A stretch of 64,000 nucleotides of DNA. Source: Candidatus Auribacterota bacterium. GTDB lineage: Bacteria > Auribacterota > Tritonobacteria > UBA1439. How positions within the stretch are numbered: position 1 is the first letter of the stretch; the number at the start of each line of letters is the position of its first letter. The position numbers and the translations under genes are program-made. Of this stretch, positions 21,106 to 60,838 are shown piece after piece. The DNA lies in contig JAPLCX010000083.1 in the NCBI GenBank assembly GCA_026392035.1, positions 4,597 to 68,596 of the forward strand, given 5' to 3'. Below the pieces are notes generated by a model, which made no database searches, was not told the origin of the DNA, and saw only the letters and a list, made by a program, of their open reading frames with translations.

Positions 21106-21777
21106 TCATAATAAGTTATTCTCTGCAAAGCTGAAATACCCATCCCTGCCGACCACCAGATGGTCCAGGATGCGGATGTCCATGGTACGGCAGGCTTCTG
21201 CGATCGAACTCGTGATGGTTTTATCCTCCGCCGAAGGTTCCGGATGGCCGCTCGGATGATTGTGGACCAAGATCAGCCCCACCGCATGGTGCGCGAGGGC
21301 CGATTCGACAATCTTCCGCGGGTAGACCACCGCGCGGTCAACCGTCCCCTCATGGATGGTCTCGTAGTCCATCACCTCATTCTTGACATTGAGAAAGATG
21401 ACCATAAAATCCTCGCGAGGGAGGGAGGCGAGCTTCATCCTGGCGAAATCCACGACCGCGCGGGGCGAGGAGAGCAGGTCCCGGCTCATCATCTTCTCTG
21501 CCATATACTCCGTGCAGAGCTCTTTGATCAGTGGGATGAGCAATGCCGACCGCGGCCCGATCCCCTTCACCGACTCGAGCTCGCGCGGGCTCGCGTCAAT
21601 GACCGCCGAGAGGCTGCCGAATCGCTCGATGAGACTTTTGGCGAGCGGCTTGACGTCCCTTCGAGAGATCACATAGGTGAGGAGAAGTTCGAGCGACTCG
21701 TAGTCGTGCATCGCCACCGCGCCGCTCTTCTCGAACCGTTCCCGCAGCCGCGTCCGGTGATGGAGATAGTGTGGCAT
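21106..21777 (-). CDS. radC: RadC-like JAB/MPN-domain protein
   Basis: HNHPSG JAMM motif and helix-hairpin-helix N-domain; ATG at 21777 lies 5 nt from the left arm of a 25-bp inverted repeat. Confidence 0.8.
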   Translation of the reverse strand: MPHYLHHRTRLRERFEKSGAVAMHDYESLELLLTYVISRRDVKPLAKSLIERFGSLSAVIDASPRELESVKGIGPRSALLIPLIKELCTEYMAEKMMSRDLLSSPRAVVDFARMKLASLPREDFMVIFLNVKNEVMDYETIHEGTVDRAVVYPRKIVESALAHHAVGLILVHNHPSGHPEPSAEDKTITSSIAEACRTMDIRILDHLVVGRDGYFSFAENNLL

Positions 21778-21781
21778 TTTT

Positions 21782-21911
21782 GAAAAAGGGGACAGGCTAC
21801 TTTTTCTGTTGAGTTTATGCATCGGTAGTGCTTTTCATCTGTGTGAGAGAGTGATTTTTTCTTTCCTTTTGATTCTTATCCGAGGTGAAAAAGTAGCCTG
21901 TCCCCTTTTTC
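21782..21911. repeat. perfect 25-bp inverted repeat (gaaaaaggggacaggctactttttc / gaaaaagtagcctgtcccctttttc) enclosing an 80-bp AT-rich loop
   Basis: Arms at 21782-21806 and 21887-21911; the loop holds the rfbD stop codon and the motif CACACAGATGAAAAGCAC (minus-strand reading). Confidence 0.75.
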
Positions 21912-22750
21912 ATGTACTCCCCTACCGCCTCTCTCCATTGCCGCATCGGGGCGCCAGTCAGCCCGGCGTAGCGTGAGCCATCGAGCGCCGAGAACGGCGG
22001 CCGCGGGGCGGGGCGAGAGAGGCGTTCGCTCGTGATCTCGTTCACCCTCACACCGCTGATCCCCCCGAGTTCGAGGATCGCGCGGGCGTACTCGCACCAG
22101 GAACAGACGCCGCTATTCGTCACATTGACGATGCCCCGGCAGTCTGTCATGAGCAGCGAGCCGATTGCCTTGGCGAGATCGCGCGCGTAGGTGGGGCAAC
22201 CGCGCTGGTCTCCCACCACCTCAAGGACAGGCTGCCTGGCCGCGGCCCTGAGTATCGTGTCAACAAAGTTCTTCCCGTGCAGGCCGAAGAGCCACGAGGT
22301 TCTGACAATGATATAGTCGTCGAGGCCGCGCCGGACCGCCTGCTCCCCGGCCAGTTTCGATTTCCCGTATGCGCTCTGGGGATTTGTCGCCGCGTCCTCT
22401 CGGTAGGGCTTTTTCGCGCGGCCGTCGAAGACGTAGTCCGTGCTCAGGTAAATCATCCTGGCGCAGGCGGCGCGGCAGGCCGCGGCGACGTACCCCGCCC
22501 CCTGCGCGTTAACGGCGAACGCACCGTCCGGGTCACCCTCGCACCCATCGACATCCGTGCGCGCGGCCGCGTTGACGACAGCATGCGGCCTGAGCTCCCT
22601 GATATACGCCTCCGTGCCCTCTCTATCGGTGATATCAACCTCGCCGATGTCAACGCCGGTGAGCTCCCACGCGGGCGAGAGAATATCCATCAGCTCGTGC
22701 CCGAGCATGCCCGCTGCCCCGATCACCAGGATTCTCTCATGTGTGGCCAT
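21815..22750 (-). CDS. rfbD: dTDP-4-dehydrorhamnose reductase
   Basis: ILVIGAAGMLG Rossmann start and YGKSK catalytic motif; the C-terminal ~30 codons run into the inverted-repeat element. Confidence 0.85.
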   Translation of the reverse strand: MATHERILVIGAAGMLGHELMDILSPAWELTGVDIGEVDITDREGTEAYIRELRPHAVVNAAARTDVDGCEGDPDGAFAVNAQGAGYVAAACRAACARMIYLSTDYVFDGRAKKPYREDAATNPQSAYGKSKLAGEQAVRRGLDDYIIVRTSWLFGLHGKNFVDTILRAAARQPVLEVVGDQRGCPTYARDLAKAIGSLLMTDCRGIVNVTNSGVCSWCEYARAILELGGISGVRVNEITSERLSRPAPRPPFSALDGSRYAGLTGAPMRQWREAVGEYMKKGTGYFFTSDKNQKERKNHSLTQMKSTTDA

Positions 22751-25227: not shown

Positions 25228-25354
25228 TGCGTCTCTCCTTTCAGGTTACAGCTCACAAAATGGAAGAGAATCAGAGTTATTATATCACGATGCCGCGGAG
25301 ATTCAGCACTGCTTTTCCCCTCACCCGGTAAGGGGTCACTTATAGAGGGGGGCC

Positions 25355-25451
25355 ACGGATCCCGCTAAGCGGGACGGATTATGACGGATATTCACAGATG
25401 AAAAGAAAGCTTCATCTGCGGCCATCCGTGTGGTTATCCGTGAAAATCCGT
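25355..25451. promoter_or_regulatory. symmetric array of 10-bp-phased ACGGAT/ACAGAT half-sites mirrored by CATCTG/ATCCGT half-sites (putative regulator operator) upstream of rfbC
   Basis: ACGGAT at 25355, 25374, 25384; ACAGATGAA at 25394; then TTCATCTG at 25412 and ATCCGT at 25424, 25436, 25446. Confidence 0.5.
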
Positions 25452-37293: not shown

Positions 37294-38372
37294 GGGTCAA
37301 ACCCGAAGTTCTAAGTTATTGACTCCATTATTTTTCCTACGCGCTCTTCTAGCTGCTTGTTCTGCTTCAGCTCTATCTGAACCTTCTTATGAACCTGGTT
37401 GATTCGCTCACCGCTAACCCCACCCAATTCTTGGCCCATTTCTTTAAGACTCATAATCTTGAAATTAGTTCGATACGTTATATCGAGTAACACTTGCCGG
37501 GCTTCCTTATGTCTCGATCTACTCTTGCTAATTTCTTCCGCTTTGACTCCATATTCTTTTGCTACCGCTTCAGCCAATTCCTTAATTGGAATCGCCTTCT
37601 TAATCTCTTTTAAATGCGAGTAATCATAAACCAGCAATTCTCTTTGTTTCAAGATATTCGTAGAAACCCAGGTCACAAAATTATCAGTTCCCAACAAAGC
37701 ATTTGCTCTTGCTTTTTCCAATGGATTGTTTAGATCCAATGCTATCCCCTTCAAAACAAAATCCCTATACGCCGCCCTGCACAGCTTATCATCCCCTCCC
37801 ATATAGGCCAATACCATGTCATAACGCATAAAATCATCCCGTTCTCTTGACCTAATATAACCAAGAAAACTGCTCCAATAATACCCCCCCAATATACCAA
37901 TCTTTTTTTCAAGCGGAAGATTGCGATACTTCTCTAACCGCACAGGATTTAAATGAATGTAGCGGCTCAGTTCCAACAAGTATTCATCTGCTTCGATTAG
38001 AATAGCCTTATATCGACCTTGATAGAGATGCCCCGCGCGGTGATGGCGCAGATTGTAATACGTGATATAGGTAGTGTTAAAGCGCTGCATAAATCTACTT
38101 AGATTTGCATCTAATGTCCTCAACAAAAAATGGAAATGGTTACCCATTAATACATAACCGTGCACTTCTATATTGAATAATGCTGCGCTTTCCCTTAGAA
38201 TCTGAAGAAATTTGTTCCGATCTTTATCATCCCTAAAGATATTTGCCCTCTGGTTTCCTCGAGAGGTTACATGATACCATGCATTGTGATATTCTATTCT
38301 CAATGGTCTGGCCATGTTTAAAGAATATCATCAATGAGCACTATTGTCAATTTAGAACTTCGGGTTTGACCC
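37294..38372. mobile_element. compact transposase cassette bounded by perfect 21-bp inverted repeats (gggtcaaacccgaagttctaa / ttagaacttcgggtttgaccc)
   Basis: Repeats at 37294-37314 and 38352-38372 exactly enclose the AT-rich transposase gene, between two divergent GT39 genes. Confidence 0.6.
37311..38315 (-). CDS. IS200/IS605-like Y1 (HUH) transposase with C-terminal DnaA-type HTH (RAYT-like)
   Basis: HUH motif EVHGYVLMGNHFHFLL and catalytic-Tyr region, plus a C-terminal Bac_DnaA_C-like helix-turn-helix; markedly AT-rich. Confidence 0.75.
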   Translation of the reverse strand: MARPLRIEYHNAWYHVTSRGNQRANIFRDDKDRNKFLQILRESAALFNIEVHGYVLMGNHFHFLLRTLDANLSRFMQRFNTTYITYYNLRHHRAGHLYQGRYKAILIEADEYLLELSRYIHLNPVRLEKYRNLPLEKKIGILGGYYWSSFLGYIRSRERDDFMRYDMVLAYMGGDDKLCRAAYRDFVLKGIALDLNNPLEKARANALLGTDNFVTWVSTNILKQRELLVYDYSHLKEIKKAIPIKELAEAVAKEYGVKAEEISKSRSRHKEARQVLLDITYRTNFKIMSLKEMGQELGGVSGERINQVHKKVQIELKQNKQLEERVGKIMESIT

Positions 38373-57210: not shown

Positions 57211-57368
57211 TTCACCACGGAGACACGGAGAACACGGAGAACAAGAGATTATTACAAAGGGCAAAAGAACCGAATGAATAACATACCTGGAAGCTCCACC
57301 ACAGAGGGTATGAGACTGCTTTCATAAGCCATATCCTTACTCCGTGCTCTCCGTGCCTCCGTGGTAAA
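57211..57368. repeat. inverted pair of CACGGAG-repeat arms flanking about 100 bp (MITE-like or long stem)
   Basis: Left ttcaccacggagacacggagaacacggaga at 57211-57241; right tccgtgctctccgtgcctccgtggtaaa at 57341-57368 is its near reverse complement. Confidence 0.6.
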
Positions 57369-58983: not shown

Positions 58984-58999
58984 AAAACATTACACGATC

Positions 59000-59050
59000 T
59001 TCTCCGTGCCCTCCGTGCCCCTGCCTGCCGGCAGGCAGGTCCGTGGTGAA
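59000..59050. repeat. CACGGAG-repeat / CCTGCCTGCCGGCAGGCAGG palindrome element, copy 3 (inverted relative to copy 1)
   Basis: tctccgtgccctccgtgcc-cctgcctgccggcaggcagg-tccgtggtgaa. Confidence 0.65.
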
Positions 59051-59128
59051 AACCAATTAAACAAAAGCGCACGGGCGCTCCATTCCTCCACGCCCGCGCG
59101 CCTCGCGTGCTGCGCCTCTTCAACAACC

Positions 59129-60735: not shown

Positions 60736-60749
60736 ATAACCCTCCGGAT

Positions 60750-60802
60750 AAATCCCAAATCCCAAACCTTAAATCCCAAATCCAAAATCCCAAATCCCAA
60801 TA
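60750..60802. repeat. TTTGGGA heptamer repeat element, copy C (seven tandem heptamers in the prfB 5' leader)
   Basis: Minus strand reads ATTGGGA TTTGGGA TTTTGGA TTTGGGA TTTAAGG TTTGGGA TTTGGGA, ending 15 nt before the prfB ATG. Confidence 0.75.
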
Positions 60803-60838
60803 TAGCAACTGCATCTCCAGGCGGCAATCGTCACATAA

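Follow-up and report, generated by a model that had tools for sequence, protein, structure and literature searches.

A REPIN-like hairpin at the rfbD-radC junction of a Candidatus Auribacterota bacterium and its RAYT-associated repeat family

Repetitive extragenic palindromic (REP) sequences, the hairpin-forming doublets built from them (REPINs) and the tyrosine transposases associated with REPs (RAYTs) are known from the REP doublets of Pseudomonas fluorescens SBW25, on the REP sequences and bacterial interspersed mosaic elements (BIMEs) of E. coli with their TnpA-REP, and on the arrangement termed 'REPtron' (PMC3116915, PMC3337134, PMC5581495, PMC6006769). Each REP of these systems is palindromic, with a conserved 5' GTAG or GTGG at the foot of the stem (PMC6006769). 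Published REPIN-RAYT pairs are described as lineage-specific and vertically inherited, and REPINs are said to exist only for RAYTs of Groups 2 and 3; Group 1 RAYTs are widespread and were possibly transferred. Here we analyze a hairpin element on the junction of the genes rfbD and radC in 64,000 nt of DNA from a Candidatus Auribacterota bacterium (assembly GCA_026392035.1, contig JAPLCX010000083.1, positions 4,597 to 68,596 of the forward strand). This whole stretch is called the window, and all coordinates refer to it. The element is very probably a REPIN, composed of two inverted 25-nt REP units around an 80-nt spacer, which is the non-autonomous partner of a clade of Y1/HUH RAYTs and has become fixed and partly exapted at this junction. 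The assignment rests on the observation that the same motif brackets RAYT genes in the REPtron/REPIN-RAYT arrangement.

The element has three parts, given here in the order of transcription:

21887..21912, minus strand: REP arm 1, the 5' arm of the rfbD-radC transcript, TGAAAAAGGGGACAGGCTACTTTTTC; the rfbD frame reads (M)KKGTGYFF
21807..21886, minus strand: spacer of 80 nt, holding the rfbD stop codon TAA (21817-21815), an in-frame radC ATG (21822-21820) and a 13-mer (21831-21843)
21781..21806, minus strand: REP arm 2, the 3' arm of the transcript, GAAAAAGTAGCCTGTCCCCTTTTTCA; KSSLSPF in the radC frame from 21822

The arms are 26 nt each, 100% complementary and 80 nt apart. An earlier note on this DNA, made from its letters alone, had described a perfect 25-bp inverted repeat with an 80-bp AT-rich loop. 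The repeat is real, as are the loop length and its low G+C content (37.5%; window 56.7%, body of rfbD 65.5%), but each arm is one base longer. The 25-mer occurs in the window only as the two arms, and none of 100 dinucleotide shuffles contains it. A perfect 26-nt inverted repeat within 200 nt would be expected about 3e-9 times per 64 kb. As minus-strand RNA, the element forms the full 26-bp stem (-59.9 kcal/mol, z = -8.4 versus shuffles), which is followed by the U-tract UUUUU; as single-stranded DNA, the doublet folds with about -28.5 kcal/mol. The element is a strong hairpin in either form. A permissive Rfam scan yielded only sub-threshold matches to plant and animal microRNA hairpins (26 bits versus a gathering score of 83), which reflect a generic long hairpin.

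The earlier note regarded the hairpin as mobile and proposed a search for other copies of the 25-mer. The sequence proves far from unique. A scan for the exact 25-mer, with one genome per species, recovered at least 120 loci from at least 66 assemblies, and these copies, together with orthologous junctions that do and do not carry the element (see below), bear out its mobility. The matches listed fall under ~17 phylum-level labels, including Nitrospirota, Aminicenantes, Clostridia/Bacillota, Syntrophales, Planctomycetota, Myxococcota, Thermotogae, Campylobacterota, Omnitrophota, Elusimicrobia, Aerophobetes, Bipolaricaulota, Desantisbacteria, WOR-3, Binatia, and others. The phylum labels of metagenome-assembled genomes can err, but the breadth is supported by the cultured isolates among these matches, Desulfoscipio geothermicus DSM 3669 and Citrifermentans bremense R1, which have copies with short spacers (L002 and L076 are the loci of these two isolates), and by loci on contigs of 0.4-1 Mb or on a complete chromosome. 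One metagenome-assembled genome of Nitrospirae has at least 12 loci and another at least 10. The viral contigs of IMG/VR contain no exact match to the motif, the plasmids of PLSDB and phages of INPHARED contain no RAYT of at least 60% identity, and a full-text literature search with the core sequence in both strands returned only unrelated human primers. This cross-phylum REPIN-RAYT family is apparently undescribed.

The unit is almost always paired, as GGGGACAGGCTAC ... GTAGCCTGTCCCC. Among the loci listed, close pairs number 96 in the (+,-) order versus 3 in the (-,+) order; the arms are constant, and the spacers range from 0 to 206 nt depending on the lineage. The inverted units, the less conserved spacer and the long hairpin are those of a REP doublet. 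The layout of the 25-nt unit is G-AAAAAGGGGACAGGCTAC-TTTTTC. Conservation ends at its first G, with 241 distinct flanks showing no further consensus, and no target-site duplication or direct repeat is visible around the 96 pairs. GTAG is present within the unit (AAAAA-GTAG-CCTGTCCCC), where it lies in the loop of the sole self-complementarity, an 8-bp A/T-rich frame of TGAAAAAG and CTTTTTCA that contributes -4.2 to -5.2 kcal/mol as single-stranded DNA. According to crude open reading frame (ORF) calls, the gene context of the family is convergent in 18 cases, tandem in 28 and divergent in 13, and about 26 of 64 adjoining gene ends fall within -8 to +7 nt of an element edge.

Several variations on this theme were observed in the collected loci. 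Genes next to the element frequently stop right at its edge: in L013, L014, L030, L083, L092, L099 and others, the stop codon of a neighboring gene is built from the first bases of the element (T/GA AAAAGG or TA/G AAAAAGG, with the slash at the element edge). Direct tandem arrays of the REP unit, with a period of ~51-63 nt and the same adjoining spacer each time, occur in L003 (93-168), L103 (2859-3240) and L101 (7784-7925) and resemble BIME-like clusters. Two Aminicenantes loci, L018 (2802-2890) and L019 (6220-6295), contain a cousin repeat, ATAAATGGGGCCAGGCTCCATTTT, and its inverted partner adjoining copies of the main family; further units of the GGGG(T/C)CAG(A/G)C type occur in other loci. 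These similarities suggest a wider superfamily of related REP units.

The partner transposase was found in other genomes. An ORF of ~220 aa lies between the motif and its reverse complement in L016, L111, L087 and L059, forming with them a unit of ~740 bp. The protein scores 80.1 bits with the NCBIfam model REP_Tyr_transpos (cut-off 80) and 1.5e-13 with Pfam Y1_Tnp. Its sole match in the PDB is E. coli TnpA-REP (4ER8), aligned over the HUH motif and the Y..NPV..G.V...DW.S region. The gene is held by 6 of the 120 motif loci listed, and short doublets are far commoner. An independent test used 80 metagenome loci picked by RAYT protein similarity alone, which were scored for the 13-nt core upstream (+) and downstream (-). 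Of those with at least 65% identity to the RAYT, 45 of 49 are bracketed on both sides; the remainder comprise one locus at a contig edge, two that are one-sided and one with no core at all. Below 65% identity, brackets are found at 6 of 25 evaluable loci. RAYT genes bracketed by the same REP units are therefore a feature of this clade, seen in other genomes and not in the window. The RAYT belongs to a very large clade, with at least ~7,900 homologues at E <= 0.001; the best 120 of these are all at least 69% identical, and their source names include Nitrospirae, Aerophobetes, Deltaproteobacteria, Omnitrophica and Elusimicrobia. The same REP, with RAYTs at least 65-70% identical, occurs under ~17 phylum-level labels among the matches listed, a distribution that argues for horizontal spread.

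The window does contain a Y1 gene of another kind. A 1.08-kb island of 40% G+C (37294-38372) between two membrane-protein genes has a 334-aa Y1_Tnp ORF (IS200-like/RAYT-like; 37311-38315, minus strand), which is 37% identical to the RAYT of the REPIN family over the core and has a long C-terminal extension; it is a distant paralogue. The inverted repeat on either side of this island is a different one, GGGTCAAACCCGAAGTTCTAAGTT, of 24 nt and 96% complementarity, with no further copy in the window or in 213 fetched loci.

The element is shared by two genes:

21815..22750, minus strand: rfbD/rmlD, dTDP-4-dehydrorhamnose reductase, 311 aa; Pfam RmlD_sub_bind 1.3e-88, aa 6-282
21106..21822 (238 aa), or from the ATG at 21777 (223 aa), minus strand: radC, RadC-like JAB domain; Pfam RadC 7.7e-44, UPF0758_N

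All genes of the locus are on the minus strand, with rmlB, rmlA and rmlC upstream of rfbD at higher coordinates and glycosyltransferase genes downstream of radC. The rfbD ORF crosses the arm at 21887-21912 and, as the earlier note had seen, ends within the loop (TAA, 21817-21815) with the tail ...EYMKKGTGYFFTSDKNQKERKNHSLTQMKSTTDA. The coding sequence for the last 32 residues of RmlD (from M280) spans the junction and continues in the element. The spacer ATG at 21822-21820 is in the radC frame and overlaps the rfbD stop as ATGCATAA. A second in-frame radC ATG (21777-21775) lies 4 nt past the 25-mer arm or 3 nt past the 26-mer arm, not 5 nt as first reported. No sigma-70-like promoter match was found on the minus strand of the spacer. 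As read from the DNA, RmlD owes its stop codon and its 32 C-terminal residues to the element, which provides both genes with coding sequence and punctuation. Accordingly, the low-complexity tail of RmlD (32 residues) and the N-terminal extension of RadC (15 residues) should be annotated as element-encoded, and not as native features or as an operator.

The window was compared with the DNA of five syntenic rfbD-radC loci (L126, L128, L130, L132 and L133):

Window: element present; RmlD tail and TAA in the element; RadC ATG in the spacer (21822) and ATG at 21777
L126, L128, L130 (RmlD 75-79% identical to that of the window): element present in the same place; RmlD tail and stop in the element; RadC ATG in the spacer only
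L132: element absent, different 20-nt GC-rich inverted repeat; RmlD ends ...EYIRNRVGVRRGASRRI*; native RadC start GGAG-N6-ATGAAAACCCCCCAC
L133: element absent, different 11-22-nt inverted repeat; RmlD ends ...EYIRQ*; native RadC start ATGAAACCCCCCC, no GGAG upstream

In these alignments, the element is present in four lineages and absent from two. The RmlD proteins agree with this picture: relatives at 75-79% identity (P0003, P0004, P0005 and P0007) have ...KKGTGYFFTSDK... tails, and P0002, P0008, P0010 and P0023 are without a tail of the element type. Orthologues that are free of the repeat end differently and are shorter. The proposal of the earlier note that the RfbD tail is encoded by the mobile hairpin is upheld, given that the tail is found in orthologues only where the repeat is present.

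The RadC starts are equally informative. In both element-free loci, the native start reads ATGAAA(A)CCCCCC. The corresponding position in L126, L128 and L130 reads AAAAAAGCCCCAC or AGAAAAACCTCAC, with no ATG, and the conserved RadC N-terminus PHYL(K/H)HR.RLRE(R/K)FEKSG can be reached in these loci only from the spacer ATG (ATGCATAAACTC or ATGCATAGACTC), with arm 2 translated as KSSLSPF. Gene calls find the 238-aa RadC ORF open in every element-carrying locus. In three orthologues, the sole usable RadC start that retains the conserved N-terminus thus lies in the element. In the window and in L126, the spacer ATG and the RmlD stop share bases (ATGCATAA); in L128 and L130 the RmlD stop is at CACAGATGA, and the RadC ATG follows ~15 nt downstream. 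In-silico removal of the element from the window leaves a long stretch with no stop codon in any frame. This indicates that the element replaced the native stop, the intergenic region, the Shine-Dalgarno sequence and the ATG, and did not arrive by simple insertion. The suggested insertion into the 3' end of rfbD is therefore right in that the element encodes the tail, and wrong in that native sequence was lost. As judged from the alignment, the replaced stretch begins right behind the ...EY(I/M) codon and reaches as far as the native RadC start.

Between the window and L128, 48 of 50 arm positions are identical (96%), compared with 63 of 82 in the spacer (77%; Fisher p = 0.003 versus arms) and 427 of 483 in the coding flanks (p = 0.15 versus arms). 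By eye, the 41 nt of spacer adjoining arm 2 are ~90% identical and the remainder ~60%. The simplest reading of these values is one ancient entry followed by vertical descent, in which the left half of the spacer would be largely neutral, and the arms and the stop/start region would be constrained. With the same element at the same site in four lineages, its local inheritance looks vertical. No empty allele of the exact lineage of the window was found, the nearest tail-free RmlD being 82% identical. The spacer has a marginal 17-nt local match to the intergenic region of L133 (p ~0.03-0.04) and no homology to that of L132.

The inverted repeats of the element-free junctions are of their own kinds. 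L132 (4860-4933) has a 20-nt GC-rich pair of 85% complementarity, which its RmlD reads as ...VGVRRGASRRI, and L133 (4875-4943) has an 11-nt perfect and a 22-nt imperfect inverted pair. An inverted repeat at every orthologous junction examined lends weak support to the idea that a hairpin is useful there; equally, the junction could be a tolerant landing site. The RmlD of L126 (P0005) is a mosaic, with an N-terminal third that is nearly identical to P0002, which has no REPIN, and a C-terminal third that is 95-98% identical to the window, as are the REPIN and radC. This indicates recombination between lineages inside the rml operon.

The following course of events would account for these data. 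A RAYT acting in trans would have spread the element in the form of a single-stranded DNA hairpin. The element would have entered the junction once, in the ancestor of this subclade of Candidatus Aureabacteria, and would since have been inherited vertically. In the present rml-radC transcript, a hairpin of about -60 kcal/mol would form wherever its 5' arm is not melted by ribosomes that complete rfbD. Such ribosomes would unwind this arm and terminate in the loop at the TAA, 5 nt after the spacer ATG. Since the RmlD TAA overlaps this ATG (ATGCATAA), translation of RadC is probably coupled to that of RmlD. On untranslated transcripts, the hairpin and its U-tract may act as a partial terminator or attenuator of read-through, or may protect the 3' end of the rml mRNA. 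A role as terminator or attenuator at this junction is plausible, but the 80-nt loop of the window copy and the passage of both neighboring ORFs through its arms rule it out as a simple full stop.

Set against the described REPIN-RAYT systems, the family shares a short repeat arranged as inverted doublets that fold into long hairpins without target-site duplication, and a single Y1/HUH gene between inverted copies of these units, as in the REPtron (PMC3116915, PMC5581495, PMC6006769). The spacer of the doublet is again less conserved than the REP units, and copies persist at orthologous sites. The differences concern the unit itself and its distribution. GTAG lies inside a unit framed by A5 and T5, whereas known REPs are GC-rich palindromes with GTAG at the foot (PMC6006769). 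The 25-mer is invariant over ~17 phylum-level labels among the matches listed, with RAYTs that are 65-93% identical; spacers vary from 0 to ~200 nt within the family, and the window copy lies inside two ORFs and is not extragenic.

Several observations weigh against the assignment of the element as an exapted REPIN. Unlike classical REPs, a single unit forms no GC-rich palindrome footed by a 5' GTAG. The 64-kb window has one copy only, overlapping two ORFs, and no cognate RAYT is seen in it; in the gene context of the family, a bias toward 3' ends is weak or absent. To our knowledge, mobilization by a RAYT in vivo has been shown for no REPIN. At the junction, the arms are not significantly more conserved than the adjoining coding DNA (p = 0.15 and 0.07), one arm of L126 has decayed by three changes, and the two in-frame RadC ATGs of the window (21822 and 21777) mean that the start used is not fixed by sequence. 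The window copy also misses the terminator consensus, with its 80-nt loop and no call by a terminator scan, even though stem and U-tract are present.

Among other mobile elements, those of the IS200/IS605 group of insertion sequences (IS) and their palindrome-associated miniature derivatives (PATEs) come closest, as they combine a Y1 HUH core with a single-stranded hairpin substrate and leave no target-site duplication (PMC6006769). The ~740-bp unit might then be a jumping IS and not a domesticated RAYT, with the window copy as its remnant or miniature. The match to the Pfam model Y1_Tnp ('Transposase IS200 like') fits this, as do relatives of at least 70% identity in many phyla, which suggest horizontal movement. 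The TnpA of IS200/IS605 is, however, only ~130-150 aa and inserts beside a specific tetra- or pentanucleotide (PMC6006769), whereas the present protein has ~220 aa and its units have no conserved flank. It also just passes the NCBIfam equivalog threshold for RAYTs and finds only TnpA-REP in the PDB. IS200/IS605 elements have asymmetric subterminal hairpins at their ends; in 45 of 49 loci here, by contrast, both ends are formed symmetrically by one unit in inverted orientation. Doublets, moreover, greatly outnumber gene-bearing units (6 of 120 motif loci listed), and we regard this origin as unlikely. Less likely still is a classical miniature inverted-repeat transposable element (MITE), that is, an internally deleted IS of the DDE type with terminal inverted repeats, moved by cut-and-paste with target-site duplication. 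A precedent is the Correia element (CREE) of Neisseria, which is 100-155 bp long, has terminal inverted repeats of ~26 bp, sits at gene junctions, is transcribed into hairpins, alters the expression of neighboring genes and adds coding sequence to them. The window element resembles it in its ~130 bp, perfect 26-bp terminal inverted repeats, gene-junction site and added coding sequence. Correia elements occur in a single genus and generate a duplication of a TA target, and we know of no Y1 partner for them. No target-site duplication of the Correia or DDE type is seen here: 0 of 96 paired copies are flanked by a direct repeat, the flanks lack a consensus, and the only gene found between full-length ends is the Y1/HUH RAYT and not a DDE transposase.

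Explanations without mobility fare no better. An intrinsic terminator or attenuator that evolved locally between the rhamnose genes and radC would account for the very stable RNA hairpin followed by UUUUU, and the element-free junctions have inverted repeats as well. The unit also resembles bidirectional intrinsic terminators, with an A-tract on one side and a U-tract on the other side of a G+C-rich stem (GGGGACAGGCUAC/GUAGCCUGUCCCC), and short-spacer relatives fit the intrinsic-terminator consensus on both strands. The window copy departs from it, with an 80-nt loop (versus 3-8 nt), both ORFs passing through its arms and a mobile sequence that crosses phyla. A local origin is contradicted by the presence of the same 25-mer in at least 120 loci of unrelated genomes, where it brackets a transposase gene, and does not fit a G+C content ~26 points under that of rfbD; it merits as little credence as the MITE. 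Least credible of all is an operator module in which the 13-mer of the spacer, CACAGATGAAAAG, is the site of a common regulator of the rhamnose genes. The earlier note had pointed out that the 13-mer recurs in an array upstream of rfbC, and there are indeed two exact copies in the window, on the minus strand at 21843-21831 and on the plus strand at 25393-25405; in addition, CACACAGATGAAA is kept in all four orthologous elements. An exact match of at least 13 nt elsewhere in the window is, however, found for 24% of random 80-nt segments and for 12% of low-GC ones. The two copies are oppositely oriented relative to transcription, and the second forms the center of another palindromic insert, which L126, L130 and L132 lack; L133 has a related insert of CACGAAT repeats, without the 13-mer. 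Overlap with the RmlD stop (at CACAGATGA in L128 and L130) and the RadC start region explains why CACACAGATGAAA is retained. The sharing of the 13-mer is therefore at chance level and its second site is not conserved, and we reject it as a regulator site.

Returning to the REPIN assignment, a more far-reaching reading can be offered tentatively, and we hold it to be doubtful. One REPIN-RAYT system, its recognition unit frozen and built like a portable bidirectional terminator (GC stem, A5/T5 frame), might have moved horizontally among many sediment and anaerobic phyla, and the copy in Candidatus Aureabacteria might have been exapted as a coupling module that ends RmlD and starts RadC. If true, this would contradict the view of REPIN-RAYT pairs as lineage-specific, vertical and essentially proteobacterial. 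A family that moves between phyla with one recognition unit would provide a natural test of the 'vertically inherited replicator' model and, with two cultured isolates, a tractable system for asking what RAYTs recognize and whether REPINs are mobile terminators.

The window and its orthologues contain further repeats of other types. A short tandem array of AAATCCC-like units (TAAATCCCAAATCCCAAA...) is located at 60749-60804. The RmlD orthologue P0006 ends with ...KSQIPNPKSQNS, which could be a translated repeat resembling this array, at the 3' end of rfbD in another lineage. The insert upstream of rfbC (~25290-25425) is a palindrome of ~120 nt, in which a central hairpin, CAGATGAAGCTTTCTTTTCATCTG, is accompanied by three CACGGAT units and their three inverted counterparts, ATCCGTG. 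The orthologous intergenic region of L126, L130 and L132 lacks it, and L133 has a related CACGAAT/ATTCGTG version. By this pattern, it looks like another mobile palindromic element and not a native operator array. Finally, 54-nt inverted copies with 94% complementarity are found 56.6 kb apart, at 2295-2348 and 58999-59052 (also 2360-2396 and 57213-57249). CACGGA(G/C) repeats abound in both copies around a GC palindrome, and the copies may share a repeat class with the CACGGAT insert.

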